Program-made: the position numbers and the translations under genes | The notes under the pieces: model-generated | Seen by the model: only the letters and a program-made list of their open reading frames with translations | What the model was told of the DNA's origin: nothing | Databases searched by the model: none | Shown here: in pieces, positions 1 through 26,926 of the stretch | How the letters are laid out: the number at the start of each line of letters is the position of its first letter | Numbering within the stretch: the stretch's first letter is position 1 | Source of the DNA: Macrostomum lignano | Taxonomy: Eukaryota | Assembly (NCBI GenBank): GCA_002269645.1 | Contig: NIVC01000157.1 | Coordinates: 62,001-126,000 of the forward strand | Length of the DNA stretch: 64,000 nucleotides | Direction of reading: 5' to 3'

Positions 1-1552
1 TCTACGGCGGCCGCGTAGAGTGCTTTATCCCGCATGCTGTGGCCAGCGAGACTGAGACTCTCAAATATCGGGATGTGGTGAGTAGTGATACTACTAATAT
101 AGTAGAATATTTTGCAAAAAAATACAGTTTATGAAAAAATAATGCTTTATTTCAACTGGCAGGTCTCTCTGTACCCGACGGTGCAGTCGAAAGACCCGTA
201 CCCGATTGGCCACCCGGTGCAACATCCGACGCCGCAAGTGCTAGATTCTGACGCGCTGGCTAGTTACTTTGGTATTGCCAAGGTGACTGTGTTGCCGCCG
301 TCAAATTTGCACATTCCGCTGCTGCCGTACAGAGTGCAAAAGAAGCTCTTTTTTGGGCTTTGCCGCACCTGTATGGAGCAGCAGTGCGGCGAGTGCTGCG
401 ACCACTCAGACGAGCAGCGGGCACTGACTGGTACCTGGGCCACGCCAGAGCTGCGGAAGGCCTTCCAGTTGGGCTACCGGCTGCAGGTGGTGCACGCGCT
501 GGCCTACTGGACAGAGCAGCGGACGGGCCTGTTCGGTGACTATGTCAGCACCTTCCTCAAGCTGAAGGCCGAATCGAGCGGCTCCCCTGGCATGTCGGAT
601 GAGGACAAGGCCGCCTACATTGCCGATTTCTTTGCAAAGGAGGGCGTCACGCTGGACAAGGTCGAGCCCAACCCAGGACTTCGCTTTGTAGCGAAAATCT
701 TTTTGAATTCGTAAGTATTCATAAATTTTGTTTTTTAAATGATTTTCTTCTACTATCAGTAGCACTTCCTTTCACAACACACAGGCTCTGGGGCAAATTT
801 TGTCAGCGTGACGACCTGACATCGACCGAAATAGTATCCAGCTACGAGGACTGGCTCGCCCGGCTGACCGACCCCAACCTCAAAGTCAAGGCCTGCGAAC
901 CGGTTGGCAGCGAGTTTATGCTGCTAGAGTACCGGCACCGCTATTTTAATCAGCGGCCGTTCCGGTACTCCAACGTACCGATCGGGGTCTTTACGACCAC
1001 GCAGGCCCGGCTGCGCCTGTACGAGGCATTGGAGGGGCTCGGCGAACGGGCCATTTACTGCGGCACTGACTCGTAAGTATTGCATTGGGAAAATTCTTTT
1101 AGAATTGATTACATGTAAATTAGCAAGTTGGCAATTATCTCGTTTTCTCTCCCCCACACAGGGTCGTTTACCGGCATTCCGAGGGCCAATGGGAGCCGCC
1201 CCATGGCACGAGCCTCGGAATGTGGACCGATGAGGTGCCCGCAGGCAGCCGGATGACCGACTTTGTAAGTGGGGGGCCCAAGCTCTACACTTACATTGTC
1301 GAGGATGCGGCCGGTGTCCGGAGTCAGGTCCTGAAGTGCAAGGGCATCCGCCTGACTCCAGAGATTCGGGAGCGCAGCGATGAATTGCGCAGTGCCCTAC
1401 TACACGGCGGCTCCCTGCAGCTGCCGCAGCTTCAGTTTAGGCGCGACAAGGCGTCTTGTACCATACACACTGTTAGTATGGACAAGACGTTTCAGCGCGT
1501 CCTGACGAAGCGCGTGTACGGGGCCTGCAGCAGGCCTTATGGTTATAAATAA
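1..1552 (+). pseudogene. polB: Protein-primed family B DNA polymerase (Polinton/adintovirus-like), copy A, last four exons
   Basis: Splicing introns 78-162, 711-784 and 1073-1161 (all GT-AG) restores YRDV|VSLYP (motif A), KIFLNS|LWGKF (motif B) and YCGTDS|VVY (motif C, with D>G at the first Asp). It ends RPYGYK* at 1552. The 5' part runs off the window. Confidence 0.93.
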
Positions 1553-1913
1553 TGTGGCCCTTGCTTAATAAATATCTTGTTAAATTTGACTGAGTAAAAT
1601 CTATTTATTGTTGTACATATTTTGCATGTTAAATTAATGAAGAGTTACATACTACTATACAAATGTACATAAAGCATTTTTGTATTGTATGCAGCGAAAT
1701 TGCCAATGTAAAAATCTATTGTACATATTTTGCGTGTCAAACTTGTTTAAAATCATTTATGAAAAGAAAATTAATGAAAAACAATTTAAAATTTTCTGTA
1801 TATTCTATTTGCTGGTAATGCTGTACATAAATTATTTCCTGTAATATGCTACTGATTTAATGTAAATATATCTTCATTGTAAATACTTATACATGATGTA
1901 CGCTACACGGTTA

Positions 1914-2414
1914 GTTGACTCATTTGGTAGTAGATGAGATTAGTAATTCTCGCCTCTGCGTACATGTAGTATTGTACATGTAATTTTGGTGCGCGCGCGC
2001 TGGGGATGACACTGTAGATTAATGCACATGTACATATAGAATTGGGGATAGACAATTTGGGATAGGGATTAATGTACATGGAATTAATGTACAATTTGAG
2101 ATAGATAGGGATTAATGTACATGGAATTAATGTACAATTTGAGATATTTAGGGATTAATGTACATGGAATTAATGTACAATTTGAGATATTTAGGGATTA
2201 ATGTACATGGAATTAATGTACAATTTGAGATATTTAGGGATTAATGTACATGGAATTTTTAATATGATCACATGGATTATTACAACTACATATTGAATCA
2301 CGCTTAGGATAGCGTTTTTGTATACTACTTACTTCATTTTTCAGATAGTAGTATAATTTGCGTTTTTTGCGTCAAAACATCTGAAAATCAACACTTATCT
2401 GCACATTACGTAGT
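1914..2414. repeat. Terminal inverted repeat / end of the element downstream of pol copy A
   Basis: Shares sequence from GTTGACTCATTTGG to ...ACATTACGTAGT with 13816-14209 and 14678-15045. Similarity stops at the same base in all three. Confidence 0.8.
2065..2256. repeat. 43-bp tandem repeat, about 4.5 copies
   Basis: Unit GGGATTAATGTACATGGAATTAATGTACAATTTGAGATATTTA starts at 2065, 2108, 2151, 2194 and 2237, with no spacers. Confidence 0.95.
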
Positions 2415-2509
2415 ATGGTGGGAAAAGTTTTCCTCTATAATGCATTGAAATTTTGAATCAGCAATTAGTTGCAAAATGAAAAGTTTTAGGATAAAATGCA
2501 ATTATTTAC

Positions 2510-3033
2510 CATGTCCAAGTCGGCTCGCGGCGCCATTGCCGCAAAAATTCTTGGTATGCGGCCTCTTCGTTGTCAGCAGCGACAGCAGCAGCCTCCCCAC
2601 TAGCAGCAACCGCACTATGCAGCCCCATCCGAGGGGCTAAATTAATACCTAAGCGGCTGCTCTTTTTTTTCGGCTTCATGCTGCTGCTGTTGCTGCGGCT
2701 GCTGTTGATGTGACTGCTGCTACTGCTGCTGCTGCTGTGATTGCTGCTGCTGCTGATTTCAGAGCCAGAGGGTTGATGTCTCGTGGCCTGACGGTCGTTG
2801 CTGCTGCTGCTGCTGTCGCTGTCGTTGCTGCCAGATTTGTTTGACAGGTTTAAAACCGGTCGGGTGATATAACGATGTGACAGGTTCCGACCTACTCGGC
2901 CACCCCCAACCCCGCACCATAGGATTGAAGGGGTTTTGCCGCAACGCAGGGCTGCCGCCACCGCAACTAACTGCGGCGGCTCGTCTTCAACACTGATGCT
3001 ACTGCTGCTGCTGTTGATGCGGTCGCTGTTCAT
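2510..3033 (-). pseudogene. Orphan gene Y (Ser-rich), exon 1, left inverted-repeat arm
   Basis: MNSDRINSSSS...EEAAYQEFLRQWRREP, with a GT donor at 2509. A 1-nt deletion relative to the 23 kb copy shifts the frame just before the donor, and exon 2 is absent. Confidence 0.65.
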
Positions 3034-3429
3034 GGTAATCAAGTTTAGGCGAGTAGGCGAGTAGATGTGTTTGATCACAAATTTTCAGTCTCGCAGGGGT
3101 CTCGTTTTTATAGTGATTTTGTGAGGCCTCCCATTGGCTCCGCCAGCCTGCAAGCAAGCAGGCAAGCAAGTCTGCCCAAACCCCAGCCCAGCCCCACCAG
3201 CGAGTTAGTCAGTCTGACTCAACAACAGCAATATCTGTTTTAATAATAAAATTTCAAAGTCTCGGTTATTTTCAATTTCAAAATAAATGAAATAAGACCA
3301 TTTTTAATTCCAGAGATGTTATTTGTCAATTCCAGTTTATTCAAAAAAATGGTTTTCACATTATTAGAGTTGATATATAATCGCAGAAACACAAATTCCC
3401 ACAAGTAAAAATTATACAATTGAGAGTTA

Positions 3430-3690
3430 ATCAGCATCAACATCAAAGGCCCGGCCAAAATTTAAAGCAACAAGTGTTGAATATGTGGTATCGTTCACCG
3501 ATACCACTGATATTCGCGCCACGTTTGGTGGCATAATTTCTGTGCTTTGCGCCGACCTACACGCAAACGATTTTGTTTCGGCCAAGTTGACTGGCGACAA
3601 CATGATGCTTGCCATCAATGTCCCGCCGGTCCGCGCCGCCCGCTTCACTGCAGAGTTGATATTCAAGCACATTAACAAGGTTCTACACAT
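3430..3690 (+). pseudogene. polB: pPolB exon-3 fragment inside the inverted-repeat arm (mirror copy about 8165-8425 on -)
   Basis: VSFTDTTDIRATFGGIISVLCADLHANDFVSAKLTGDNMMLAINVPPVRAARFTAELIFKHINKVL matches the N-terminal exon of copies B, D and E. Confidence 0.85.
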
Positions 3691-3897
3691 GTCAAAGTTA
3701 TTATACAAACCATATATTCCCACAAAAGCAATGATTATACAACCCCCACATTATGAATATGAATATTCCCACACAAAAAGCATACAGCAGACACAAAAGA
3801 GTTTTTTTAGCAATTGTTTTAATCATTTTCACTCGACACGCATTGTGGCCTTGTCACTGCAGATTAGCTTAAATCGCTTGTTCTGCTCCTTGATCAC

Positions 3898-6443
3898 TTC
3901 CCAAATGACACAAACACTGTAATTATGCCGCTCCAACTCGCGAGTGAACCACTCGGTCTCGTGGCGAATGTGGCTCAGAGGCTGCCGTTTGAGCGGGTGG
4001 ACGACATCCTGATCGGGCATACACTGCTCGCAGCCATGGTAGAAACAACCATGAAACTGCAAGACAGTGTTGCTAGTCTCATCAAAGCCGTCCACCTTGC
4101 GGCCGAGAATGACCGCCTCGCCGCCATTCGAGTCGCAGGTGCGCAGCCGCCCGCCAAATTCGGTGGCATTCAAATAGGCCAGCCACTTGCGCGCCTTGAA
4201 TGACTGCTGGTCGGCCTGCCGGGCAATCACGCCGACCGAGTTGGGCTCCATGAATTTAGTAGTAAACACGGCCATTGCTAAACTGGCAATCGTATTGGCC
4301 TGAACAAACGGTTCCAGGCCGTCGCAAATGTCGCCAATTATCGACCTGTACTTGATGCAGCCCTCGCGAAGCAGGACTGTGTCACTCAAACAATAATCGA
4401 GATACTCCCGATTAAAGTTGAACAACTCGCCCTGTCGCGAGGCCAGCCAAGCACAGACGGAGTCGTAGTCATTGTTTGCCTTGCCGCCATAATATTCAAT
4501 AGCCGGGTAGGGGCCCACGTAGTTCCAATTAGCAGGCTTGTTGAACTCGTGGGGAAAGATCCCCCTGGCCAGCTTTGTGTCAGCGAGCCCCAGCGCTTTG
4601 GGGGATTGCGCAAGCGGGATTGGTATAAAGTTTAACGAATCTTTAAATACCAATTTATCAACAGTCATGCTCATTAGCCGGCTGCCCTGGAACAGTACTT
4701 GGGGCCGCTTCTTGGCCAGGCCGATGAGCAGAGCGCCAAGCAGTAGAAACGCATCATAGCCTGATGCATTGTGCGCGACAACAATGGCGCCGCCACGGAA
4801 AGTGGTGCTCAGCCAGGCGAAAAACGCATTCAGCGAGGCCGGGCCCACAGCCACAAAATCGGCCATTTGGCAGGCGCAGTCTGAGTGGCTGACGCAATTG
4901 GAGAATTCCTTCCCCAGATCGCGGTCAGTCAGACAGTTGGCGGCGCTATGCAGGCCATTGCAGAGGCGGCAAGTCTCGCGAGGAAACGACCGGCCAGAGC
5001 AGGTCTCGCAGCACGTGACGGCAGTCACCAGATGCACGTGATGCTGCTTCTCCTCGTCTGTGTACGTTTCCGTATCGTAGAACACGTACGGCATAGTTGA
5101 AGCTTTCACTTTGGGAGCCTTGACGAAACACAAATGCGAGCCGGCCTCGTCGTACTGTTTACACAGTGGGCACTTGACATGCCCGCACTTGTGTTCCGGC
5201 TCCTTTTGCCCGACTTTTAGCTCCTCCTGATAACCGCAATTAGCGCATACACGGACAGAGTCGCAGCGCGAACGGCCGGCCCGGTTTTTCTGGCGGTGAT
5301 TATTAAAGCACTGCGGATTGTAACATTTTAACCCGCAGTCTGGGCATCGCTTATAGTCACACCGCAGGCTCTTGCAATTGGCGCCGGGCGCTTTGCATTG
5401 AGGGCAGGTGTTGGCGCACTTGTGCCCTCCAGACACGCAGTCGTACGGCTGCTGGCAGCGGTCACAATAGCGGCGGGCTCCGAAAAATGGCGGCACCTTG
5501 CACACCGCGTTAAAGTGCTCGCCAATTAGGTGCAAATTCAGCACTGTGCTGCCTGGTAGGGCATACACGCATGTATTGCCCTCCTCTGCGCTGTACACAC
5601 GAACGCCTAAATCTCGGCCGGGCGACTGGGCGTTCAGAACAGCCAGCAGTTGGGGGAGCACATCAACCCCGAAAGGCCCGGCCTGTGCAATGGTTGATAA
5701 AGACTAAAACATTTGTATATTAATAAAAATGTAAATTAAAATGTGCAAAATTATTTTTTACTTACCGAATACAATTTGGCGGCAATCTGAAGTTCCTCAG
5801 TCAGCTTCGTCTGCAGTGGGGAGTCGGCCTTGATTGTTTGCCACGTATGCTAAGTGATGGCCTTGGCCAGCATGTCCGCGAAAGCCTTGGCGACAATCAG
5901 CGCTCGAATTAAACAGCGCTTATCGCGGTTGGCGATGACGACGTAGCTGTTGCCCATAGCATGCCTGGCCTGGATGTGGCGCTCCATAACAAAAACAAAA
6001 CAAAAACAAAAAACAAAAACAATTTAAAGTTGTTGCCCAAGACGCTGGAGTCCGACTGCAGCACCTTGTTTATATGCTTGAAAACAAGCTCTGCAGTGAA
6101 GCGGCTGAGGCGGACTGGCGGCACGTTAATAGTGAGTAGCATATTATCGGCGGTCAGCTTGGCTGCGACGAAATCGTTAGCGTGCAAGTCACTGCAGAGT
6201 GCCGAAATTATATCCGCAAACGTGGCGCGAATATCGGTAGTATTTGTGAAGGCTACTTCATACTCACACTCTTTTGCCTTAAATTTTGGCAATGCCTTTG
6301 CCCCGCCCAGGCGTGCAATGAAGCCTGAAAAATGGAGGGTTTGAAATTAGAATTGCGAGTGAATGACTCATGAAATAAAATCAACTCCTTACCATCGCCT
6401 TCAACAGTGTCGGGCTGGGGCGGGGGTTGAAATTGAGCCAAAT
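3898..6443 (-). pseudogene. polB: pPolB copy B (micro-exon 2, exon 3 and most of exon 4; 3'-truncated)
   Basis: Micro-exon 6443-6393, intron 6392-6325, exon to 5766, intron 5765-5683. Then Cys-rich region, ExoI YDTETY, ExoII HNASGYD and ExoIII YCLSD. Broken at VIWE (3898). Exon 3 has a deletion replaced by (TTTTG)n. Confidence 0.9.
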
Positions 6444-7424
6444 CTGCAATAAAAATGCGCATGGTGACTAAAATTCTGACCGCTTGGAATTTTACAACTG
6501 TCAAAAAGTTTTGATTGATTGCCTGCAGCAGCAGCAATTTTATCGCCCCCACCCCAAGCAACAAAAATCGGCGAGTTGTAAAAACCCCAACTCGGCACGT
6601 TCCGACACGTAGCAACAAAAGAAATGTGGGGTTGATTGACCCCGCTTCGAATTTTAGGCTGTCAAAAATGTTTGATTGATGACCCTGATAACACAGATCC
6701 TGCCGCAGCAGCCATTGTAAAATTTAAGAAAACCCCTATCAGCACGTGCCTCCATTGTGTCTCCTTGACACCTAGCAACAATACCGCGCGGCCGCTTTTG
6801 GATTTTTAAAGCTGTCTGATTAATAACCCTCACTGTAGCAGCCATTGCTGCTAACACCCCTACTGTCAATTGCAGCGGTGATTACATCATCATGTCCAAA
6901 AATCGGGGGGTTGATTTTATCACTGCCGCCTGCCCGCCCCCCGCTGAGTCTCGCGCGCGCCGCAGGATTGCTGTTTTTGCTTCTCTCTAGTTCAAGGATT
7001 AGTCACATAACCCCTGAAATTTTATGAATATCCTCTACAGGCATTATCTGGCTATACTGCTGCTGCTGCTGCGGATATTCTCTAAAACTCTGTTATTTCA
7101 ACAGGCCTGAATTTGAGAAATCCAACTTCAACATCTATGTCAAGAGGAAATTCAGAAATTGATGAATGCTATTGAATTGATGAATTGATGAAGTCAAAAT
7201 GAATGCTAAAGATGAAAAGCAGCTGTAGTTTCAAAGAAAGCCCATATTTCAAAAAGCGTGAAGTTTGCAAATCACACTAATGCTAAAGCTAAAAAGCGCA
7301 GTTATACAACCATATTTTTCTAATTTTAGATTTTGCAAATGCTAAAAATGAAAATAATTGAGGCTAATGACTAAAAAGCAGTTTTTCAAAGAGTCCTATT
7401 ATAATATTGAGTCTCTGCACGTCC

Positions 7425-8026
7425 TCGACTCTCGTCATAAGCGGTTTCAACTGGGTGAGAGCGGCCGCAAGATTCTGGAAGTGAAAAACAGCCAGATTTG
7501 GCTGCATCGCATCAACCCGGCCGGCTGCGATGAGGGCGAGCGTTGGAAATATTACATCAAGTTCACCCCTGAATTGTGGACTGCTCTGATGGATGCTGAC
7601 GTTGATTCACTGTTTGCCTCGCAGTCGCCGCCGCCGCCACCCAAGACGGCCTCGGAGCCATCATCGCGGTTCAACAGCTGCAGCAGCAGCAATGATGGTG
7701 ACGGCAATGGCAACCGCCGCCGCAGTGCTGGCACCCCGCCACCGATTGAGCTGCAGCCGCAGGTGAAGAAGCTTTCAACGACTGACGGCGGCAGAGGCAG
7801 CGGCAGCGGCAGCAGCAGCTACAAGTGGTGGCACTCGTATCCTCCGGACTCGACTGAGCTCGAGAGCTGGGCTGCTGGCCTGACTGATGAACAGCTTTTC
7901 AAGATCCCGGCCCATCAGATTGGGCCCCACGAGCCGGCCTTTGCTGCTTGGGCTGCTGTGATCAAGGAGCAGAACAAGCGATTTAAGCTAATCTGCAGTG
8001 ACAAGGCCACAATGCGTGTCGAGTGA
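7425..8026 (+). pseudogene. 5'-truncated copy of the PC4-like gene
   Basis: From about LDSRHKRFQLGE onward it matches 25641-26432. The N-terminal PC4-like domain and promoter are deleted, and it is joined to pol intron-1 sequence. Confidence 0.8.
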
Positions 8027-8716
8027 AAATGATTAAAACAATTGCTAAAAAAACTCTTTTGTGTCTGCTGTATGCTTTTTGTGTGGGAATATTCATATTC
8101 ATAATGTGGGGGTTGTATAATCATTGCTTTTGTGGGAATATATGGTTTGTATAATAACTTTGACATGTGTAGAACCTTGTTAATGTGCTTGAATATCAAC
8201 TCTGCAGTGAAGCGGGCGGCGCGGACCGGCGGGACATTGATGGCAAGCATCATGTTGTCGCCAGTCAACTTGGCCGAAACAAAATCGTTTGCGTGTAGGT
8301 CGGCGCAAAGCACAGAAATTATGCCACCAAACGTGGCGCGAATATCAGTGGTATCGGTGAACGATACCACATATTCAACACTTGTTGCTTTAAATTTTGG
8401 CCGGGCCTTTGATGTTGATGCTGATTAACTCTCAATTGTATAATTTTTACTTGTGGGAATTTGTGTTTCTGCGATTATATATCAACTCTAATAATGTGAA
8501 AACCATTTTTTTGAATAAACTGGAATTGACAAATAACATCTCTGGAATTAAAAATAGTCTTATTTCATTTATTTTGAAATTGAAAATAACCGAGACTTTG
8601 AAATTTTATTATTAAAACAGATATTGCTGTTGTTGAGTCAGACTGACTAACTCGCTGGTGGGGCTGGGCTGGGGTTTGGGCAGACTTGCTTGCCTGCTTG
8701 CTTGCAGGCTGGCGGA

Positions 8717-8750
8717 GCCAATGGGAGGCCTCACAAAATCACTATAAAAA
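8717..8750 (+). promoter_or_regulatory. CCAAT box and TATA box of gene Y (mirror copy about 3105-3138)
   Basis: GAGCCAATGGG followed by CACTATAAAAA about 70 nt upstream of ATG 8822. Confidence 0.6.
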
Positions 8751-8821
8751 CGAGACCCCTGCGAGACTGAAAATTTGTGATCAAACACATCTACTCGCCT
8801 ACTCGCCTAAACTTGATTACC

Positions 8822-9349
8822 ATGAACAGCGACCGCATCAACAGCAGCAGCAGTAGCATCAGTGTTGAAGACGAGCCGCCGCAGTTAGTTGCGGTGGCGG
8901 CAGCCCTGCGTTGCGGCAAAACCCCTTCAATCCTATGGTGCGGGGTTGGGGGTGGCCGAGTAGGTCGGAACCTGTCACATCGTTATATCACCCGACCGGT
9001 TTTAAACCTGTCAAACAAATCTGGCAGCAACGACAGCGACAGCAGCAGCAGCAGCAACGACCGTCAGGCCACGAGACATCAACCCTCTGGCTCTGAAATC
9101 AGCAGCAGCAGCAATCACAGCAGCAGCAGCAGTAGCAGCAGTCACATCAACAGCAGCCGCAGCAACAGCAGCAGCATGAAGCCGAAAAAAAAGAGCAGCC
9201 GCTTAGGTATTAATTTAGCCCCTCGGATGGGGCTGCATAGTGCGGTTGCTGCTAGTGGGGAGGCTGCTGCTGTCGCTGCTGACAACGAAGAGGCCGCATA
9301 CCAAGAATTTTTGCGGCAATGGCGCCGCGAGCCGACTTGGACATGGTAA
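8822..9349 (+). pseudogene. Orphan gene Y exon 1, right arm
   Basis: Identical translation to the 3033-2510 copy. Confidence 0.65.
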
Positions 9350-9355
9350 ATAATT

Positions 9356-12300
9356 ACGCCTCTCGCAATTCTAATTTTGAAACCCTCCATTTTTTCAGGC
9401 TTCATTGCGCGTCTTGGCGGGGCGAAAGCCCTGCCTAAATTTAGAGCCAAGGGCTACGAGTATGAAGTCTCATTCACAGCACTCACCGGTATTAGAGTCA
9501 CATTCGAGAAAGTAATTTTGGCACTGCAATGACTTGCGTGAGGACGATTTCATCTCGGCCAAACTAACGGCCGACATATCAACAAGGTTCTGCAGTCGGA
9601 CTCCAGTGTCTTGGGCAACAACTTTAAATTGTTTTTGCTCAAGGCCTGGGTCCCGCGGGGCGGCTGCGGCAGCTTAGATGCGGCGGAGCGCCACATTCAG
9701 GCACGCCATGCTATGGGCTATAACTATGCTGTCATCGCCAACCGCGACAAGCGGTGCCTCATCCGGGCGCTAGTGGTGGCCAAGGCCTTTGCCGACCTGG
9801 AGGCCAAGACAATTTCTAAGCGGGCTTGGCGGACAATCAAGGCCGACTCCTCAATGCAGAAGAAGCAGACTGGGGAACTTCAGATTGCCGCCAAATTGTA
9901 TTCGGTGAGTAAAAAATAATTTTGCACATTTTAATTTGCATTTTTATTAATATACAAATGTTTTAGTCTTTATCAACCATTGCACAGGCCGGGCCTTTCT
10001 GGGTTGATGTGCTCCCCCAACTGCTCGCGGCCCTGAACGCCCAGTCGCCCGGCCGGGATTTCGGCGTCCGGGTGTACAGTGCTGAGGAGGGCAATACATG
10101 TGTGTATGCCCTGCATGGCCGCGAAGTGCTGAATTTGCACCTAATTGGCGAGCACTTTAACGCTGTTTGCAAGGTGCCGCCATTTTTCGGTGCCCGTTAC
10201 TATTGCGACCACTGCCAGCAGCCGTATGATTGCAACTCTGCAGAGCACAAGTGCGCCAACACCTGCCCTCAGTGCAAAGTGCCCGGCGCCAATTGCAAGA
10301 GCCTGCAGCGTGACTACAAGCGCTGCCCAGACTGCGGGTTAAAATGCTATAACAGGCAGTGCTTTGATAATCACCGCCAAAAGAACCGGGCTGGCCGGTC
10401 TCGCAGCAACACCACCCGCGTCTGCCCCAAATGTGGATATGTTGAAGAGTTAAGAGTCGACCAAAAGGAGCCGGAGCACAAGTGCGGCCATTTCAAGTGC
10501 CCACTGTGTAAACAGTACGACGATGCCGGCTCGCATTTGTGTTTCGTCAAGGCTCCCAAAGTGAAAGCTTCGACTATGCCGTACGTGTTCTACGATACGG
10601 AAACATACACGGACGATGAGAAGCAGCATCACGTGCATCTGGTGACTGCCGTCACGTGCTGCGAGACCTGCTCTGGCCGGGCGTTTCCGCGCGAGACTTG
10701 CCGCCTCTGCAATGGCCTGCATAGCGCCGCCAACTGTCTGACTGACCGCGATCTGGGGAAGGAATTCTCCAATTGCGTCAGCCACTCAGACTGCGCCTGC
10801 CAAATGGCCGATTTTGTGGCTGTGGGCCCGGCATCGCTGAATGCTGTTTTCACCTGGCTGAGCACCACTTTCCGAGGCGGCGCCATTGTTGTAGCGCACA
10901 ATGCATCAGGCTATGATGCGTTTCTACTGCTTGGCGCTCTGCTCAACGGCCTGGCCAAGAAGCGGCCCCAAGTGCTGTTCCAGGGCAGCCGGCTAATGAG
11001 CATGACGGTGGATAAATTGGTATTTAAAGATTCATTAAATTTTATACCAATCCCGCTTGCGCAATTCCCCAAAGCGCTGGGGCTCACTGACACAAAGCTG
11101 GCCAAGGGGACCTTTCCCCACGAGTTTAACAAGCCGGCTAATTGGAACTACGTGGGCTCCTACCCGGCTATTGAATATTATGGCGGCAAAGCAAACAAGG
11201 ACTATGACTCAATCTGTGCTTGGCTAGCCTCGCGACAGGGCGAGTTGTTCAACTTTAATCGGGAGTATCTCGATTATTGTTTGAGTGACACAGTCCTGCT
11301 TCGCGAGGGCTGCATCAAGTACAGTTCGGTAATTGGCGACATTTGCGACGGCCTGGAACCGTTTTTACAGGCCAATACGATTGCCAGTTTGGCAATGGCC
11401 GTATTTACTACTAAATTCATGGAGCCCAACTCGGTCGGCGTGATTGCCCGGCAGGCCGACCAGCAATCGTTCAAGGCGCGCAAGTGGCTGACTTATTTGA
11501 ATGCCACCGAATTTGGCGGGCGGCTGCGCACCTGCGACTCTACTGGCGGCGAGGCGGTCATTCTCGGCCGCAAGGTGAATGGTTTTGATGAGGCTAGCAA
11601 CACTGTCTTGCAGTTTCATGGTTGTTTCTACCATGGCTGTGAGCAGTGTATGCCAGATCAGGATGCTGTCCACCCGCTCAAACGGCAGCCTCTGAGCCAC
11701 ATTCGCCACGAAACCGAGTGGTTCACTCGCGAATTGGAGCGGCACAATTACAGTGTTCGTGTCATTTGGGAGCACGAATACGACGCTGTATCAGCAGGCC
11801 GATTTCATTGCCGCAACTGCCCATCTGCGCGCTCCGCTCAAGATGGAGGATGCGCTCTACGGGGGCCGCGTAGAGTGTTTCATCCCGCATGCTGTGGCCA
11901 GTGAGACTGAGACTCTCAAATATCGGGATGTGGTGAGTAGTGATACTACTAATATAGTAGAATATTTTGCAAAAATACAGTTTATGAAAAAAATGCTTTA
12001 TTTCAACTTGCAGGTCTCTCTGTACCCGACGGTGCAGTCGAAAGACCCGTACCCGATTGGCCACCCGGTGCAGCATCCGACGCCGCAGACGCTCAACTCT
12101 GACGCGCTGGCCAGCTACTTTGGTATTGCCAAGGTGACTGTGTTGCCGCCGTCAGATTTGCACATTCCGCTGCTGCCGTACAGAGTGCAAAAGAAGCTCT
12201 TTTTTGGGCTTTGCCGCACCTGTATGGAGCAGCAGTGCGGCGGCTGCAACCACTCAGACCAGGAGCGGGCGCTGACTGGCATCTGGGCAACGCCGGAGCT

Positions 12301-13392
12301 GCAAAAGGCCTTCCAGTTGGGCTACCGACTGCAGGCGGTACACGCGCTGGCCTACTGGACAGAGAAGCGGACCGGTCTGTTTGGTGATTATGTAAACGCC
12401 TTCCTCAAGCTGAAGGCCGAATCGAGCGGCTCCCCCGGCATGTCGGATGAAGACAAGGCCGCCTATATTGCCGATTTCTTTGCAAAGGAGGGCGTCACGC
12501 TGGACAAGGTCGAGCCCAACCCAGGACTTCGCTTTGTAGCGAAAATCTTTTTGAATTCGTAAGTATTCATAAATTTTGTTTTTTAAATGATTTTCTTCTT
12601 CTAACAGTAGCTTTTATTTTCACTACACAGGCTCTTGGGTAAATTTTGTCAGCGTGACGACCTGACATCGACTGAGATTGTGTCCAGCTACGAGGACTGG
12701 CTCGCCCGGCTGACCGACCCCAACCTCAAGGTCAAGGCCTGCGAACCGATTGGCAGCGAGTTTATGCTGCTAGAGTACCGGCACCGCTACTTTAATCAGC
12801 GGCCATTCAGGTACTCTAATGTGCCAATCGGGGTTTTTACAACCACGCAGGCCCGGCTGCGCCTGTACGAGGCCTTGGAGGGGCTCGGCGAACGGGCCAT
12901 TTACTGCGACACTGACTCGTAAGTATTGCATTGGAAAAATTCTTTTAGAATTGATTACATGTAAATAGTTAGCAATTATCTCGTTTTTCTCTCCCACACA
13001 GGGTCGTTTACCGGCATTCCGAGGGCCAATGGGAGCCGCCCCATGGCACGAGCCTCGGAATGTGGACCGATGAGGTGCCCGCAGGCAGCCGGATGACCGA
13101 CTTTGTAAGTGGGGGGCCCAAGCTCTACACTTACATTGTCGAGGATGCGGCCGGAGTCCAGAGCCAGGTCTTGAAATGCAAGGGCATCCGCCTGACTCCG
13201 GAGATTCGGGAACGCAGTGACGACTTGCGCAATGCCCTGCTACACGGCGGCTCCCTGAAACTGCCGCAGTTTCAGTTCAGGCGCTACAAGGCGTCTTGTA
13301 CCATACACACGATCAATATGGACAAGACGTTTCAGCGCGTCCTGACAAAACGGGTGTACGGGGCTGGCAGCAGGCCTTATGGCTATAAATAA
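9356..13392 (+). pseudogene. polB: pPolB copy C (most complete copy: exons 3-7)
   Basis: Introns 9905-9987, 11933-12013, 12559-12630 and 12919-13001. All exonuclease and polymerase motifs are present (YCDTDS intact). Lesions: internal deletion and frameshift in exon 3 (about 9530-9580), a short deletion/frameshift at about 11790, and W>L in motif B (NSLLGKF). Confidence 0.93.
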
Positions 13393-13815
13393 TGTAATCC
13401 AATTATAACTGACGATTCAATGTACATTTTGCAATATTAAATTAGTAAAATCTATTTATTGTACATAATTTGCATTGTAATACTGCTGTATTTATCAGAA
13501 TTCATTTGCTGTATATATTTCAATGTAAAATAAAACATTTATATTTTTATTCAATAAAACAAAAAAAAACATAAAACATTTTTGCATTGCGTGTGGCGAA
13601 ATGCCAATGTAAAAATCTATTGTACATATTTTGCATGTCAAACCTGTTTAAAATCATTTATGAAGAGAAAATTATTGAAAAAACAATGTAAAATTTTCTG
13701 TATATTCTATTTGCTGGTGATGGTGTACATGTCTTGATTCCTGTAATATGCTACTGATTAAATGTAAATATATCTTCATTGTAAATATTTATACATGATG
13801 TGCGCTACACGGTTA

Positions 13816-14209
13816 GTTGACTCATTTGGTAGTAGATGAGATTAGTAATTCTCACCTCTGTGTACATGTAGCATTGTACATGTAATGTTGGTGCTCGCGG
13901 GACGTCTGGGGATGACACTGTAGATTAATGTAAGTGTACATATAGAATTGGGGATAGACATGGACATTTGAGATATGGATTAATGTACATGGAATTAATG
14001 TACATATCCAATTTGAGATAGATAGGGAATAATGTACATGGAATTAATGTACATATATGAGCACATGGATTATTACAACTACATATTGCCATATCACGCT
14101 TAGGATAGCGTTTTTGTATACTACTTACTTCATTTTCAGATAGTAGTATAATTTGCGTTTTTTGCGTCAAAACATCTGAAAATCGACAACAATCTACGCG
14201 TTACGTAGT
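13816..14209. repeat. Terminal inverted repeat / end downstream of pol copy C
   Basis: Same sequence as 1914-2414; ends TTACGTAGT at 14209. Confidence 0.8.
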
Positions 14210-14452
14210 CAAGTGGGCGCCGGCGTGATTGACCCTGACTATACTGGAGAATTGACTGTGGTGATATTTAATCATGGCAGTGCGGACTGGTTCATAACTC
14301 GGGGCTACCGTATCGCTCAATTAGTTTTGGAGCGTGTAATGATTGCTCCCGTAGTTGTGAAGGATCTCTATAGAGGGAATGGCGATGAGGAGGCCTCCCA
14401 CACCCACTCAATTCGCGGTGCAGGAGGGTTTGGTAGTACAGGCTATAATTAA
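14210..14452 (+). pseudogene. dut: dUTPase, 5'-truncated fragment
   Basis: Motif 3 GVIDPDYTGE, motif 4 RIAQL and motif 5 RGAGGFGSTG. It starts mid-gene immediately after the element terminus. Confidence 0.93.
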
Positions 14453-14677
14453 GTCTCAACTTGCTGTTGTCTCCCTACTGTTTTTGCTCTCTTTTTCAAT
14501 TATTTAAATGAAAATATACGCTTTTCCAATGTGAAAACTATATGAATACAGTCTTTTTCAATAGAATCTTGATTTGTAACTCTACTAAAGGTAGTAGTGT
14601 AATCAGCTACATGTAGGTTTTGAATAATTGACATATAAATAGGAATATGTATATAACGTGGTTTGTAAAACTTGAAT

Positions 14678-15045
14678 GTTGACTCATTTGGATGAGATTG
14701 TACATGTAGTAGGGTTTCGAGTTGTAATTTTGGTGGGCGCGCGTGGGCCGTCTGGGGATGACACTGTACATGTAGATTAATGCACATGTACATATAGAAT
14801 TGGGGATAGACAATTTGGGATAGATAGGGATTAATGTTCATATCCATTTTGAGATAGATAGGGATTATTGAACATGGAATTAATGTACATATGTGGGATT
14901 ATTGTACATATACGAATACATATACGCATATCACGCTTAGGATAGCGTTTTCGTATACTACTTACTTCATTTTCAGATAGTAGTATAATTTGCGTTTTTT
15001 GCGTCAGAATTCTAAAAACCCGGCAGCTTCGGCACATTACGTAGT
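14678..15045. repeat. Terminal inverted repeat / end downstream of dUTPase
   Basis: Homologous to the pol-side end; ends ACATTACGTAGT at 15045. Confidence 0.8.
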
Positions 15046-16606
15046 GAGGCACAATGGAGACACGTGCTGATAGGGGTTTTCTTAAATTTTACAATGTCTG
15101 CTGCGGCAGGATCTGTGTTATCAGGGTCATCAATCAAACATTTTTGACAGCCTAAAATTCGAAACGGGGGTCAATCAACCCCACATTTCTTTTGTTGCTA
15201 CGTGTCGGAACGTGCCGAGTTGGGGTTTTTACAACTCGCCGATTTTTGTTGCTTGGGGTGGGCTGATAAAATTGCTGCTGCTGCAGGCAATCAATCAAAA
15301 GTTTTTGACAGTTGTAAAATTCCAAGCGGTCAGAATTTTAGTCACCATGTGCATTTTTATTGCAGATTTGGCTCAATTTCAACCCCCCACCCCAGCCCGA
15401 CACTGTCGAAGGCGATGGTAAGGAGTTGATTTTATGAGTCATAAACCTGCCGCCGCCTCTCGCAATTCTAATTTCAAACCCTCCTATTTTTCAGGCTTCA
15501 TTACGCGTCTTGGAGGGGCGAAAACCCTGCCTAAATTTAAAGCAAAAGGATATGAATACATAGTATCGTTCACGGCTGATATTGTAGATGTTGGCTCAAC
15601 GATTGCAGAGGTTATTTCTGTACTCTGCGCAGACCTACACACCAACGATTTCGTCGCAGCTAAACTAACGGCGGACAACATGATGCTCGCCATCAATGTC
15701 CCACCCGTCCGCCGCAGCCGCTTCACTGCAGAGCTTGTTTTCAAGCACATTAACAAGGTTCTGCAGTCGGACTCCAGTGTCTTGGGCAACAACTTTAAAT
15801 TGTTTTTGCTCAAGGCCTGGGTCCCGCGGGGCGGCTGCGGCAGCCTAGATGCGGCGGAGAAACACATCCAGGCTCGCCATTCAATTGGGGGACGAAATTA
15901 TGTCATCATTGCCAACAGCGACAAGCGTTGTCTCATCCGGGCGCTGGTGGCGGCCAAGGCCTACGCGGACATGGAGGCCACGACAATTAATAGACAGGCT
16001 TAACGGACCATCAAGGCCGACTCCCCACTGCAGAAGAAGCTGACTGGGGAGCTTCAAATTGCTGCCAAATTGTATTCGGTGAGTAAAAGATAATCTTGCG
16101 CATTTTAATTTGCTTTTTTATTAATATACAAATATTTTAGTCTTTATCAACCATCACACAGGCCGGGCCTTTCGGGGTTGACATGCTACCCCAACTGCTG
16201 GCTGTTCTGAACGCCCAGTCACCCGGCTGGGATTTCGGCGTTCGTGTGTACAGCGCGGAGGAGGGCAACACGTGCGTGTATGCCCTGCCCGGCCACACGG
16301 TGCTGAATCTGCACCTAATTGGTGGGCATTTCAATACTGTGTGTAAAGTGCCGCCATTTTTCGGGACCCGCCGCTATTGCGACAACTGCCAGCAGCCGTA
16401 CGACTGCATCTCTGCTGAGCACAAGTGCGCCAACACCTGCCCTCAGTGTAAAGTGCCCGGCTCCAATTGTAAAAGCCTGCAGCGTGACTACAAACGCTGT
16501 GCTGACTGCGGAATGAATTGTTACAATCCGCAGTGCTTCGAGAACCACTGCCAGAAAAACCGGGACGGCAGGTCTCGCTGCAGCTCCATACGCGTCTGCC
16601 CCAAAT
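15046..16606 (+). pseudogene. polB: pPolB copy D (part of intron 1, micro-exon, exon 3, start of exon 4)
   Basis: Micro-exon 15366-15417 (52 nt, +1 frameshift), introns 15418-15494 and 16079-16161, premature TAA at 16001-16003. Truncated at RVCPK and fused tail-to-tail with copy E. Confidence 0.9.
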
Positions 16607-19600
16607 TTAGAAGCCTGCTGCAGCCTCCGTACACACGTTTCGTCAGGACCCGTTGAAAGGTCTTCTCCATACTGATCGTATGAATGGTACAAGACGCCTT
16701 GTCGCGCCTGAATTGAAACTGCGGCAGCTGCAGGGAGCGGCCGTGTAGCAGGGTGTTGCGCAGGTCGTCGCTGCGTTCCCGAATCTCCGGAGTCAGGCGG
16801 ATGCCCTTGCATTTCAGGACCTGGCTCTTGACACCGGCCGCATCCTCGACGATGTAAGTGTAGAGCTTGGGCCCCCACTTACAAAGTCGGTCATCCGGCT
16901 GCCTGCGGGCACCTCATCGGTCCACATTCCGAGGCTCGTGCCATGGGGCGGCTCCCATTGGCCCTCGGAATGCCGGTAAACGACCCTGTGTGGGGGAGAG
17001 AAAAACGAGATAATTAGTTCCACATGCTAACTATTCAATTCTAAAAGAATTTTTCCAATGCAATACTTACGAGTCAGTGTCGCAGTAAATGGCCCGTTCG
17101 CCGAGCCCCTCCAATGCCTCGTACAGGCGCAGCCGGGCCTGCGTGGTCGTAAAGACTCCGATTGGCACATTGGAGTACCTGAATGGCCGCTGATTAAAGT
17201 AGCGGTGCCGGTACTCTAGCAGCATAAACTCGCTGCCAATCGGTTCGCAGGCCTTGACTTTGAGGTTGGGGTCGGTCAGCCGGGCGAGCCAGTCCTCGTA
17301 GCTGGACACAATCTCAGTCGATGTCAGGTCGTCACGCTGACAAAATTTGCCCCAGAGCCTGTGTTGTGAAAAGAGGTGCTACTGTTAGTAGAAGAAAATC
17401 ATTTAAAAAACTGAATTTATAATTACTTACGAATTCAAAAAGATTTTCGCTACAAAGCGAAGTCCTGGGTTGGGCTCGACCTTGTCCAGCGTGACACCCT
17501 CCTTGGCGTAAAAATCGGCAATATAGGCTGCCCTATCTTCATCCGACATGCCGGGGGAGCCGCTCGATTCGGCCTTCAGTTTGAGGAAGGCATTCACGTC
17601 ATCACCAAACAGACGGGTCCGCTTTTCTGTCCAGTAGGCCAGCGCGTGCACCGCCTGCAGACGGCAGCCCAACTGGAAGGCCTTTTGCAGCTCCGGCGTT
17701 GCCCAGGTGCCAGTCAGCGCCCGTTCCTGGTCTGAGTGGTCGCAGCCGCTGCACTGCTGCTGCTCCATACAGGTACGGCAAAGCCCAAAAAAGAGCTTCT
17801 TTTGCACCCTGCATGGCAGCAGCGGAATATGCAAATCTGACGGCGGCAGCACAGTCACTTTGGCAATGCCAGAGTAGCTAGCCAGCGCGTCCGAGTTGAG
17901 CGTCTGCGGTGTCGGATGTTGCACCGGGTGGCCAATCGGGTATGGGTCTTTCGACTGCACCGTCGGGTACAGAGAGACCTGCAAGTTGAAATAAAGCATT
18001 TTTTTCATAAACTGTATTTTTGCAAAATATTCTACTATATTAGTAGTATCACTACTCACCACATCCCGATATTTGAAAGTCTCAGTCTCGCTGGCCACAG
18101 CATGCGGGATAAAACACTCTACGCGGCCGCCGTAGAGCGCATCCTCCATCTTGAGTGGAGCGCGCAGATGGGCAGTTGCGGCGATAAAGTCGGCCTGCGA
18201 TGCCAATACAGCGTCGTACTCATGCTCCCAAATGACACGAACACTGTAATTGTGCCGCTCCAACTCGCGAGTGAACCACTCGGTTTCGTGGCGAATGTGG
18301 CTCAGAGGCTGCCGTTTGAGCGGGTGGACGACATCCTGATCGGGCATACACTGCTCACAGCCATGGTAGAAACAACCATGAAACTGCAAGACAGTGTTGC
18401 TAGTCTCATCAAAGCCGTCCACCTTGCGGCCGAGAATGACCGCCTCGCCGCCAGTCGAGTCGCAGGTGCGCAGCCGCCCGCCAAATTCGGTGGCATTCAA
18501 ATAGGCCAGCCACTTGCGCGCCTTGAATGACTGCTGGTCGGCCTGCCGGGCAATCACGCCGACCGAGTTGGGCTCCATGAATTTAGTAGTAAACACGGCC
18601 ATTGCCAAACTGGCAATCGTATTGGCCTGTAAAAACGGTTCCAGGCCGTCGCAAATGTCTCCAATTATCGACCTGTACTTGATGCAGACCTCGCGAAGCA
18701 GGACTGTGTCACTCAAACAATAATCGAGATACTCCCGATTAAAGTTGAACAACTCGCCCTGTCGCGAGGCCAGCCAAGCACAGACGGAGTCGTAGTCATT
18801 GTTTGCCTTGCCGCCATAATATTCAATAGCCGGGTAGGGGCCCACGTAGTTCCAATTAGCCGGCTTGTTGAACTCGTGGGGAAAGGTCCCCTTGGCCAGC
18901 TTTGTGTCAGCGAGCCCCAGCGCTTTGGGGAATTGCGCAAGCGGGATTGGTATAAAATTTAACGAATCTTTAAATACCAATTTATCCACCGTCACCCTGG
19001 AACAGTACTTGGGGCCGCTTCTTGGCCAGGCCGTTGAGCAGAGCGCCAAGCAGTAGAAACGCATCATAGCCTGATGCATTATGCGCGACAACAATGGCGC
19101 CGCCACGGAAAGCTGTGCTCAGCCAGGCGAAAAAAGCATTCAGCGATGCCGGGCCCACAGCCACAAAATCGGCCATTTGGTAGGCGCAGTCTGAGTGGCT
19201 GACGCAATTGGAGAATTCCTTCCCCAGATCGCGGCCAGTCAGACAATTGGCAGTGCTATGCAGGCCATTGCAGAGGCGGCAAGTCTCGCGCGGAAACGCC
19301 CGGCCGGAGCAGGTCTCGCAACACGTGACGGCAGTCACCAGATGCACGTGATGCTGCTTCTCCTCATCCGTGTACGTTTCCGTATCGTAGAACACGTACG
19401 GCATAGTCGAAGCTTTCACTTTGGGAGCCTTGACGAAGCACAAATGCGAGCCGGCCTCGTCGTACTGTTTACACAGTGGGCACTTGACATGCCCGCACTT
19501 GTGATCCGGCTCCTTTTGCCCGACTTTTAATTCCTCCAAATAGCCGCAATTAGCGCAGACACGGATGGAGCTGGAGCGCGAACGGCCGGCCCGGTTCTTC

Positions 19601-21835
19601 CTGCGGTGATTGTCAAAGCACTGCTGATTGTAGCACTTGAGGCCGCAGTCAGCGATGCGCTTATAGTCGCACAGGCTTTTACAATTGTAGCCGGGCACTT
19701 TGCACTGATAACAGAGGTTGGCACACTTGTGCTCAGCGCAGAGATGCAATCGTACGGCTGCTGGCAGCTGTCACAGTGGCGGCGGGCTCCGAAAAATGGC
19801 GGCACTTTGCACACAGTGTTAAAGTGCTCGCCAATTAGGTGCACATTCAGCACTGTGCTGTCTGGTAGGGCATACACACATGTATTGCCCTCCTCGGCAG
19901 TATACACACGAACGCCGAAATCCCGGCCTGGCCACTGGGCGTTCAGGACAGCCAGCAGTTGGGGGAGCACGTCAACCCCGAAAGGCCCGGCCTATGCAAT
20001 GGTTGATAAAGACTAAAACATTTGTATATTAATATAAATGCAAATTAAAATGTGCAAGAACATTTTTACTCTTCGAATACAATTTGGCAGCAATTTGTAG
20101 CTTCCCAGTCAGCTTCTTCTGCAGTGGGGAATCCGCCTTGATGGTTTGCCACGTATTCTTAGTAATGGCCTTGGCCTGCAGATCCGCGTATGCCTTGGCC
20201 TCCACAAGTGCCCGGATTAAACAGCGCTTGTCGCGGTTAGCGATGACCACGTAGTTATACCCCATAGCATGCCTGGCCTTGATGTGTTTCTCCTTAACAT
20301 CCAGGCTGCCGCAGCCGCCCCGCGGGACCCAGGCCTTGAGCAAAAACAATTTAAAGTTTTTGCCCAAGACACTGGAGTTCGACTGCAGAACCTTGTTTAT
20401 ATGTTTAAATATTAACTCTGCAGTGAAGCGGCTGCGGCGGACTGGCGGCACGTTAATAGTGAGTAGCATATTATCGGCGGTCAGCTTGGCCGAGACGAAA
20501 TCGTTAGCGTTCATATCCGCACAGAGCGCAGAAATGATGTTCTCAAATGTGGTTCGAATATCGGTAGTATCGGCGAACGATACCACATATTCAAAACCTG
20601 CGGCTTTAAATTTAGGCAGGGCTTTCGCTCCGCCAAGGTACGCAATAAAGCCAGAAAAATTTGAGGGTTTGAAATTAGAATTGCGAGAGGCGGCGGGTGA
20701 ATGACTCATGAAATAAAATCAACTCCTTACCATCGCCTTCGACAGTGTCGGGCTGGGGCGGGGGTTAAAATTGAGCCAAATCTGCAATAAAAATGCGCAT
20801 GGTGACTAAAATTCTGACCGCTTCGAATTTTTAAAACTGTCAAAAACTTAATTGATTGCCCTGCTGCAGCAGCAATTTTATCGCCCCACGCCCAAGCAAC
20901 AAAAATCGGCGAGTTGTAAAAACCCCAACTCGGCACGTTCCGACACGTAGCAACAAAAGAAATATGGGGTGGATTGAACCCACTTCGAATTTTAGGCTGT
21001 CAAAAATGTTTGATTGATGACCCTTGATAACACTGATCCTGTCGCAGCAGAGATTGTAACATTTAAGAAACCCCCCTATCAGCACGTGTCTCCATTGTGC
21101 CTCCTTGACACCTAGCAACAATACCGCGCGGCCGCTAAAGCTGTCATAAATGTCTGATTAATAACCTTACCTGTAGCAGCCAAGTTTTATTGCTGCCAAA
21201 ACCCCTACAATTGCAGCGGTGATTACATCATCATGATCAAAAAAATTTTGGGGTTGATTTTATCACTGCCACCTGCCCACCCGCTGAGTCACGTTCGCGC
21301 GCGCGCGCTCGCCACAGAATTGCTGTTTTTGCTTCTCTAGTACAAGGATTAGTCATATAGCCCCCTGAAATTTTATGGCTATCCTCTACACACATTATTC
21401 GGCTATACTGCTGCTGCGGATATTCTCTAAAACTCTGTTATTTCATTAGGCAATTAAGAAATCCGAAAACAGTTTCCTCCCTTTACTTCAACATCTATGG
21501 CAGGAGGACAGCCTGACTTCAGAAATTTTAAGCCAAAATGAATGCTAAAGCTGTAAAGCAATTACAGAAATTTTAAGCCAAAATGAATATTAAAGATGAA
21601 AAGCAGCTGTGGTTTCAAAGAAAGCCCATATTTCAACAAGCGTGAGTTTGCAAATCACACAAATGCTAAAGCTGAAAAGCGCAATTATACAGCCCTATTT
21701 TTCTGATTTTAGATTTTGCAAATGCTAAAGATGAAAAGCATAGTTTTACGTGCGCGCAGAGACTCACCTAGCTGTCGTCCCCTCTTTGCGGCCGGAGGCT
21801 GATGCTGCTGCTGCTGCTGCTGCTGCCTGTACTCT
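16607..21835 (-). pseudogene. polB: pPolB copy E (end of exon 1 through exon 7)
   Basis: Exon-1 remnant RQQQQQQQHQPPAAKRGRQL with donor at 21767, intron 1 21767-20782, micro-exon 20781-20731 and motif-A intron 18059-17979. Lesions: intron-2 acceptor CAG>CTG, intron-3 donor lost, 17-nt deletion at about 18990 and further frameshifts. Confidence 0.9.
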
Positions 21836-22238
21836 GGATACATACTTCTACATGTGCATTATTCCACTTCTACATGTACAGTGTCATACATTAATCCCAA
21901 GACGGCCCACGCGCGCCCTGTATATGAATCACCAAGATTACGTGTACAACTCGAAACCCTACTACACGTACAGTTGTACAATCTCATCTACTACTGCCAA
22001 ATGAGTCAACACCCAAGTTTACAAAGCACGTTATATGCACATTACCATTTATATGTCAATTATTCAAAACCTACATGTAGCTGATTACACTATATACTAC
22101 CTTTAGTAGAGTTACGAGTCAAGATTCTATTGAAAAAGATTGTATTCATATAGTTTTCAAATTTGAAAAGTGTATATTTTTTCATTTTAATAGTTGAAAC
22201 AGAGAGCAAAAACAGCAGGGGCAACAGCAAGTTGAGAC

Positions 22239-22702
22239 TTAATTATAGCCTGTACTACCAAACCCCCTACACCGCGAATTGAGTGGCTGCTACTGGAAGT
22301 AACCTCCCCTTCGCCATTTCCCCTATAGAGATCCTTTACAACTACGGGAGCAATCATTACACGCTCCAAAACTAATTAGGCGATACGGTAGCCCCGAGTT
22401 ATGAACCAGTCCGCACTGCCATGATTAAATATCACCACAGTCAATTCCCCAGTATAGTCAGGGTCAATCACGCCGGCGCCCACTTGTATAGACTTGCGCA
22501 ACGCCAGTCCAGACCGGCCGGCAATCCGAGCGTAGGTCCCATCAGGCGGTTGGATTGAAATTCCGAGAGGCACCTGCGCAACAGACCCGGCCCGGACAAC
22601 AGCATCCTCAGAGGCAAAGAGATCGTAACCAACAGAGCCGATCGTCTGGCGAGCCGGCGGGCAGGCGCCTTCAGTCAGCAGCGACACCTTTAAAGCAGCC
22701 AT
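22239..22702 (-). pseudogene. dut: dUTPase (full length, disabled)
   Basis: MAALKV... with motifs GYDL, GRSGLA, GVIDPDYTGE and RIA*L (CAA>TAA at 22376-22378), plus a 1-nt deletion in motif 5 relative to the 14.2 kb copy. Confidence 0.93.
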
Positions 22703-23060
22703 GATGACGTAGCTGGAATTGGTGAGTTCGCGGTTATAATCAGTCACAGTGTTTACACACACAGAATGTTTTATAGTTTTTTTCATTCATTCTAAATATC
22801 ATTACTTGAAAAATGGTAAAAATCTCAACACAGTATTCAAATTTTACAAAACAATTTCTTTGAAACTAATGAGCGAGGTGCATTTGGATAACGCATGTGT
22901 GCATACACAACATTTAATACTATAGCGAGTTGAGATATATAGTATGGAGTGCATGAAAATTTAGATTGAGTGCAGACACGACACTTGATAAAAACAAGAT
23001 ATGTACAAGGTGCATGAAAATAAAAATGTGTGCAGACACAACATTAAATTGTCAATAATA

Positions 23061-23719: not shown

Positions 23720-23751
<32 letters not shown>

Positions 23752-25470: not shown

Positions 25471-25640
25471 CAAATAATCCCCACAAAAAGCAATGATTAT
25501 ACAACCCACACAAAAGAGTTTTTTATCAATTGTCTTAATCATTATCATTGAGCAAAAGGCTACGAATATGAATACTCCCACAAAAGCAATGATTTTACAG
25601 CCCACACAAAAGAGTTTTTTAGCAATTGTCTTAATCATTT

Positions 25641-26833: not shown

Positions 26834-26926
26834 GGAAATTGTAGGAGCATCACCAGTCACAGCCGCTTCCGCAGCATCAGCAGCATCAGCCACAATCGCA
26901 GCAGCATCAGCAGCAGCAGCAGAAGC

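Follow-up and report, generated by a model that had tools for sequence, protein, structure and literature searches.

Nested copies of a Polinton-derived element without a detected integrase at a locus of Macrostomum lignano

How does the terminus of a mobile element come to lie, to the base, in the interior of another copy of the same element? This question is raised by a 64,000-nt stretch of the Macrostomum lignano genome (assembly GCA_002269645.1, contig NIVC01000157.1; G000:C157:62001-126000 in our notation, hereafter the window), which holds a pile of copies of a Polinton-related inverted-repeat element, designated family A. A preliminary description, made from the sequence alone, had reported three such junctions and proposed that free linear ends were inserted preferentially into resident copies, either by a trans-acting integrase or by host end-joining. 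Sequence matching confirmed the three ends and their clean joins to the interiors of sister copies. The terminal motif, TTACGTAGT, has three exact occurrences in the window, starting at 2406, 14201, and 15037 and ending at 2414, 14209, and 15045, and the terminal 130 nt of these ends are 86–90% identical to one another. The base that follows each end is the resumed sequence of an uninterrupted sister copy; as described earlier, filler is absent at all three junctions and microhomology at 14209 and 15045. End 2414 is joined to a non-coding stretch by gene Y, end 14209 to the middle of the dUTPase gene, as the preliminary description had it, and end 15045 to a stretch upstream of the polymerase gene (pol). 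Its other two flank labels, gene Y intron and pol intron 1, fit GT-AG motifs in uninterrupted copies (the 2414-type site lies between donor 23340 and acceptor 23201, and the 15045-type site follows donor 21170) and are intron labels by motif inspection only, without transcript support. The sequence ACTACGT, previously read as the complementary 5′ end, has two matches in the window (11147 and 48975), both inside polymerase coding sequence and not at ends. The true left ends read 5′-ACTAC[AG]TA and are located outside the window; they do differ, as had been pointed out, from the AGT/AG motif of vertebrate Mavericks. These results support precise ends of a protein-primed, Polinton-related element and insertion into resident copies at all three junctions.

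End 2414 belongs to E1, a copy of 9,859 nt (C157:54556-64414) whose left end lies 7.4 kb before the first base of the window and whose pol has lost an internal segment. Its partner is the left end at C157:54556; both ends are flanked by ATGGTG, and the interrupted sequence on each side is that of a sister copy. E1 is a complete nested insertion. Mapping on E1 showed that 15045–14210 and 9344–3899 are colinear parts of one reversed copy, E3, with another copy, E2, in the gap; a single deletion could account for the missing left half of E2 together with the adjoining part of E3. Positions 2500–3897 are an inverted duplicate of 7958–9355 (one mismatch in 1,398), and many breakpoints of the cluster are not at termini. 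The features are collected in Table 1.

Table 1. Family A copies, their termini, and related remnants in the window, with the loci of a second Polinton family elsewhere in the genome
Feature	Position	Strand	Remark
E1, right part (polymerase 3′ exons, right terminal inverted repeat, TIR)	1..2414	+	terminal 130 nt identical to own left end
Terminal motif, end 1 (polymerase-side end of E1)	2406..2414	+	motif match
6-bp target site duplication ATGGTG	2415..2420	+	repeated before left end at C157:54556
Target copy T1, continued (gene Y region, captured pol fragment 3446-3687, PC4 3′ side)	2415..3897	+	
E3 body, reversed (gene Y, PC4-like ORF, 5′ two thirds of pol), broken on both sides	3899..9355	-	colinear map on E1
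E2 (pol and right TIR), inside E3; left half and left end missing	9357..14209	+	no partner end genome-wide
Terminal motif, end 2; joins mid-dUTPase, next 6 nt CAAGTG	14201..14209	+	
dUTPase-side end of E3 (3′ part of dUTPase and TIR)	14210..15045	-	
Terminal motif, end 3; joins pol upstream intron (GT-AG motif) of E4, next 6 nt GAGGCA	15037..15045	+	no partner end genome-wide
Target copy E4, pol 5′ fragment	15046..16606	+	
E5, pol (PF03175) and upstream region, both ends missing	16613..21817	-	
E6: inner TIR, dUTPase, gene Y, 1.1-kb insert, PC4-like ORF, LINE fragment, pol fragments; no termini	21849..28912	+	
Remnant of complete integrase-bearing Polinton, family C (also 31782-32526)	40100..42500	.	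context only
Rearranged remnant of sister family B (pol ~65% alike at DNA level, PC4-like ORF)	45761..55231	.	context only
Family D loci (second Polinton family)	G000 C67:355000-362708, C25:599896-605400, C2232:176285-184572		

Across the 764 Mb of genome searched, the end pattern of family A had 127 matches and its reversed control only one, which indicates that the pattern is not due to chance. Flanks were obtained for 105 ends; with one divergent match dropped, the remaining 104 ends collapsed into 83 junctions and 53 insertion events. Both ends were visible in 32 events, the other ends being single in the sample, and 30 of the 32 carry a 6-bp direct duplication (29 perfect, one with one mismatch), each of the 30 different. 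The two exceptions are C485/C583, which has unlike ends, and C1190/C1580, which has mirror-image flanks. The duplications separate the two agents proposed earlier. If host end-joining had captured free linear ends at breaks in resident copies, the two junctions without visible duplication and the abundance of repair-type breakpoints in the cluster would be expected; however, the ends are exact at all three junctions, with neither nibbling nor filler, the family as a whole shows constant 6-bp duplications with a symmetric base preference, and end 2414 itself has one. Host end-joining is already largely refuted by these duplications, and we regard it as exceedingly improbable. A trans-acting integrase is the likely agent.

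Family A is a dispersed, Polinton-derived inverted-repeat element of 9–10 kb with an apparently spliced protein-primed polymerase. Its length was 9.0–9.9 kb in 14 of 32 contig-level pairs of ends, coding and non-coding alike; five pairs exceeded 12 kb, and the four inspected all had extra inserted DNA. Long interspersed nuclear element (LINE) retrotransposons lie inside several copies (L041:3210-7886, L136/L137, L134/L135, and window 27015-27553). The first inverted blocks, the TIRs, measure 0.3–0.9 kb in five pol-bearing copies. Coding members carry the polymerase and a short low-complexity gene, to which a subfamily adds a dUTPase and a PC4-like open reading frame (ORF); that this subfamily is unique to the window locus was rejected, as it is present at ~10 other sites. 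Between gene Y and the PC4-like ORF, a single position holds pieces of the element's own pol that differ by copy (window 3446-3687 and 8168-8409, L047:5241-5350, C471:28108-28289) and, at window 24357-25470, an unrelated 1.1-kb insert.

The polymerase matches PF03175 (E 1e-20 to 5e-28), has as its best PDB match 1xhx, which we take to be phi29 DNA polymerase, and is interrupted by GT-AG motifs in all copies viewed (motif inspection). Its relatives number thousands at 30–37% identity, and the nearest database polymerases, at 90–98%, are labelled Macrostomum lignano. IMG/VR gave two weak matches (22–27%), of which the one inspected is a Polinton with integrase and ATPase. The polymerase also holds a Vsr-fold domain (predicted local distance difference test, pLDDT, 96), which matched 1cw0 with a Z of 9.6 and a root-mean-square deviation of 2.9 over 102 aligned positions, tied with RAP-type domains; the domain is common to many polymerase relatives.

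The non-coding members, one of which (L031) has no ORF longer than 119 aa, are giant palindromes whose arms are 98.9–100% alike in six of the eight tested. Palindromes of 9.1–9.6 kb, non-coding or dUTPase-bearing and flanked by 6-bp duplications, were seen at L031, L032, L034, and L036 (G000 C2205, C657, C301, and C982) and on C2132. The copy on C1190 (L154/L155) and C1580 (L156/L157) is short and palindromic, with central lengths of 3.4 and 6.4 kb and flanks that mirror each other for 330 nt, and looks like a palindrome-induced inverted duplication.

Family A appears to lack the genes for its own integration. A tblastn search with the integrase of family C, a complete Polinton of the same genome, produced no match below E 1.1 in 12 stretches of family A and its sister family B, and both controls matched. 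Among 103 ORFs of at least 55 aa from A and B copies, none fell into the rve integrase, capsid, or ATPase families. Neither the ORF lists nor the Pfam scans of these copies contained a major capsid protein, an A32 ATPase, or a protease; the same Pfam scan detects capsid and ATPase in family C. Cas1 was absent from the Pfam scans of A and B copies, and no bidnavirus capsid or NS1 helicase was found in them, the search for a separate end-sharing segment being limited to the copies fetched.

Which integrase, then, could be borrowed? Family B is 7–10 kb long, has 5′-ACTACTA ends and 6-bp duplications, and has no integrase found; two ORFs of 226–237 aa with no Pfam match lie beside one of its ends (L151:4962-7471). 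Family C, of ~15 kb, has 5′-AGTAG ends, 6-bp duplications, a capsid, an ATPase, and an rve integrase with 116 scored genomic matches at ≥90%. A pyrimidine-purine step (YR) occupies the center of the target site in 32 of 52 cases (62%) for family A and 13 of 21 for family B, and at 18 of 100 listed ends (18%) for family C, a hand tally whose rows include both ends of some copies. Compared with family C, Fisher P is 1e-7 for A and 1e-4 for B, and the flank background is 0.24. Family C was considered as the helper and judged unlikely on its AGTAG ends and 18% central YR. Family D, a second Polinton family, has a 463-aa capsid ORF, an ATPase, a protease-like ORF, and a C-like polymerase (motifs read by eye); on these motifs it is a doubtful cognate parent. 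A genome search for the A32 ATPase returned no match, yet families C and D carry an ATPase; the result is a false negative, and further complete families may exist.

As to where family A inserts, genome-wide flanks were mostly non-element DNA with a constant duplication, the ordinary transposon behaviour that the preliminary description had set against its own proposal. When up to 600 nt of flanking sequence was compared with natural copies by BLAST, 45 of the 53 events fell in non-family DNA and eight in family DNA, five of them at the window locus and three elsewhere (C1485, which is certain, and C1190/C1580 and C102/C885, both on matches of 84–94 nt). Preferential self-insertion as a rule is therefore unsupported; what survives is the weaker claim that nesting exceeds background and that the locus is a hot spot. 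The share of family A in the genome is ~0.1–0.4%, estimated from end counts, and of 395,656 control bases, from 61 stretches retrieved for other families, 0 matched it. The chance of 3 nested events in 48 away from the locus is 6e-5 at a share of 0.15%, 1e-3 at 0.4%, 0.012 at 1%, and 0.07 at 2%. Self-nesting is probably enriched, on few events, two of them weak. Among 35 family B junctions, none lies within A or B, which counts against self-insertion as a general rule, and one event lies inside family C. At G000:C1412:113829-138958 (L174, L140, L141), a family B copy with the target site duplication TACATG is nested inside a family C Polinton. What had been proposed as insertion of free ends into resident copies comes down to nested transposition at a hot spot.

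The history of the locus can be read in part from its alleles. C471 and C513 carry the host flank of C157 (92–99.6% identity) with different piles of copies. Both retain the outer terminus and ~80 nt of host DNA that C157 has lost, which demonstrates secondary loss of ends at this site. C471 and C513 share GACGGT, and C157 and C513 share the 28210 junction and a LINE fragment. The C513 allele holds a second fully paired nested insertion, with the duplication GCCGAA (outside the pattern sample), and C1485 a third, with CATATA. The pol half of E1 is 94–98% identical to the copy on C1485, compared with 89–95% to its neighbours; local hopping as the source of E1 is unsupported for this half, the dUTPase half being comparable only within the cluster.

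The account that we favor, with a probability of roughly 0.7, starts from precise ends, 6-bp duplications, nesting, colinear pieces, and the absence of a detectable integrase or capsid gene. Family A would replicate with the protein-primed polymerase that it encodes, and a retroviral-type integrase acting in trans would insert the products. Serial insertion at a hot spot, in a presumed order, would have placed E3 in E4, E2 in the dUTPase of E3, and E1 in a duplicated part of E3, after which deletions and an inverted duplication would have removed the partner ends of 14209 and 15045; loss by later deletion is the most likely fate of these partners. Several points weigh against this account. A genome-wide search for the two partner ends with subterminal variants found only unrelated copies, and since neither end has a partner or a duplication anywhere, an integrase origin of both is something that we infer. 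The junctions are known from the assembly. Family C, with its different ends and different target signature, is an unlikely helper, and the element might itself encode a divergent, heavily spliced transposase.

Two rival explanations concern how the junctions arose. In one-ended or intramolecular (alternative) transposition, a resident copy would contribute one terminus with which the integrase attacks a neighbour, producing unpaired junctions together with deletions or inversions in one step. This would suit the missing partners of 14209 and 15045, and T1, the inverted duplicate, has its left border just 47 nt away from the position in the dUTPase that E2 targeted, a proximity suggestive of a break that began at the lost E2 end. 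Most cluster breakpoints are not at termini, however, a simple nested order accounts for all three ends, and two fully paired nested insertions occupy the same site (ATGGTG, and GCCGAA in C513); we consider one-ended transposition distinctly unlikely. The junctions might instead be assembly artefacts of a repetitive region. The locus is indeed rich in repeats, and among the matches listed for window 1800-17000, public contigs neither bridge nor contradict the junctions and no RNA record appears; but the copies are 80–95% alike and not identical, a misjoin cannot produce the perfect duplication at 2414, and other junctions of the cluster recur on separate contigs (GACGGT on C471 and C513; the 28210 junction and LINE fragment on C157 and C513). 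An artefact is highly improbable.

The subterminal sequences point to contact between copies. Between an invariant tip and a conserved inner stretch, the zone from −27 to −9 is a mosaic, with 53 distinct terminal 28-mers in the 104 family A ends; all four gametes were found in 107 of 153 column pairs and in each of the 34 pairs 8–11 nt apart. The two ends of one copy usually share a variant (~6 of 32 pairs differ, by eye), and one exact 20-mer, a sequence for which the search selects, is common to at least 281 family C ends. From this pattern we suggest that ends of different copies pair and that a variant is then copied to both ends. The 19-nt hypervariable, recombined zone (window 2388-2406, 14183-14201, and 15019-15037) acts as a per-copy barcode, and family B varies similarly. 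About 130 nt in, an inner ACTAC[AG]TA points toward the terminal motif, and a small palindrome (TACTAC...GTAGTA) separates the two (e.g., L031:204-335); when the terminal 130 nt were folded, no consistent signal emerged (z −2.8, −1.7, and −1.0).

Contact between copies bears on a further alternative, namely that nesting preceded chromosomal integration: free linear copies would replicate together, recombine at their ends, and integrate into one another, their own DNA being an abundant target. The mosaic, the convergence of coding and non-coding members on 9.0–9.9 kb, and the three nested events among 48 away from the locus are in line with it. Against this, the different nested sets in three alleles of the host site imply that copies were added or rearranged once integrated, family B shows a comparable mosaic yet none of its 35 junctions is nested in A or B, and extrachromosomal DNA was not seen. 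We regard nesting before integration as unlikely and retain serial nesting at the locus.

The surroundings of the pile contain other repeats. Remnants of families C and B (31782-32526, 40100-42500, and 45761-55231) lie less than 30 kb from it, so that three related families meet in one 60-kb region. DNA-transposase-like ORF fragments, judged by eye, occur at 35534-36903 and 47351-47821, and low-complexity tandem arrays at 29937-30908, 33988-34766, and 37769-38063.

Family A works like a non-autonomous Polinton and is not a Polinton by definition. Non-autonomous Polintons are reportedly covered in Repbase and by Kapitonov and Jurka in 2006. Polintons by definition encode a polymerase and an integrase (PMC5499653), and the Alpha polymerase class is defined by a PF03175 match (PMC8502044). 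Like Polintons/Mavericks, family A has a protein-primed family B polymerase of this kind (PF03175, the Alpha-adintovirus class), TIRs, and a 6-bp duplication, and its sister family B shares the 3-nt-type terminal repeat (ACTACTA); unlike them, family A has no detected integrase, ATPase, capsid, or protease, is 9–10 kb and not 13–25 kb long, and has an apparently spliced pol. Vertebrate Mavericks end in 5′-(AGT)2//(ACT)2-3′ or (AG)3//(CT)3 and have intronless ORFs and 6-bp duplications (PMC8097293), whereas family A ends, 5′-ACT...AGT-3′, are the reversed motif. An integrated polinton-like virus (PLV) without an integrase, Ca_PLV1, for which supply in trans was suggested (PMC11296320), resembles family A in being integrated without a detectable integrase; such PLVs keep capsid genes, and family A keeps the replicase without detected virion and integration modules. 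Bidnaviruses and linear plasmids are likewise small TIR-bounded replicons with a related protein-primed polymerase (bidnavirus PolB, PMC8502044), but neither a capsid nor a helicase of bidnaviral type, nor a plasmid RNA polymerase, was found in family A, which integrates with integrase-type duplications. The nesting described in PMC12220804 and PMC8547959 concerns retrotransposons. Casposons differ in their Cas1 integrase, which was not found in family A or B. Fold-back or copy-back defective genomes and foldback transposons are matched by the non-coding members, near-perfect palindromes that keep the ends and transpose with 6-bp duplications; unlike those systems, family A palindromes equal the coding members in length (9.1–9.6 kb) and are without any transposase. 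We found no account of polymerase-only Polinton derivatives with reversed ends, of fold-back siblings, or of such Macrostomum elements in a search that left outside Repbase, most subscription papers, and supplements, which may list them.

A broader picture, tentative and rather unlikely as a whole, is that families A and B form a satellite tier below Polintons: self-replicating replicons of 9–10 kb with an Alpha-type polymerase and a borrowed integrase that recognizes reversed ACT...AGT ends. They would be size-selected as if packaged and accompanied by non-coding fold-back parasites of equal length; their 19-nt zone would be shuffled by end pairing between copies, possibly with Vsr-fold patch repair, and family A would prefer itself as a target. 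A large survey, which gives element sizes and reports the Vsr domain in some polymerases, was limited to integrase-linked polymerases (PMC10748475), and a survey of that design would miss a polymerase-only mobile tier. In the M. lignano genome, insertions that are young and can be counted fall into three kinds, polymerase-only, non-coding fold-back, and complete Polinton, with differing ends and target signatures. With all three in one laboratory animal, parts of the Polinton model that have long gone untested can be put to the test, namely panhandle intermediates of single-stranded DNA, the recognition of ends by the integrase, and replication in the free state.

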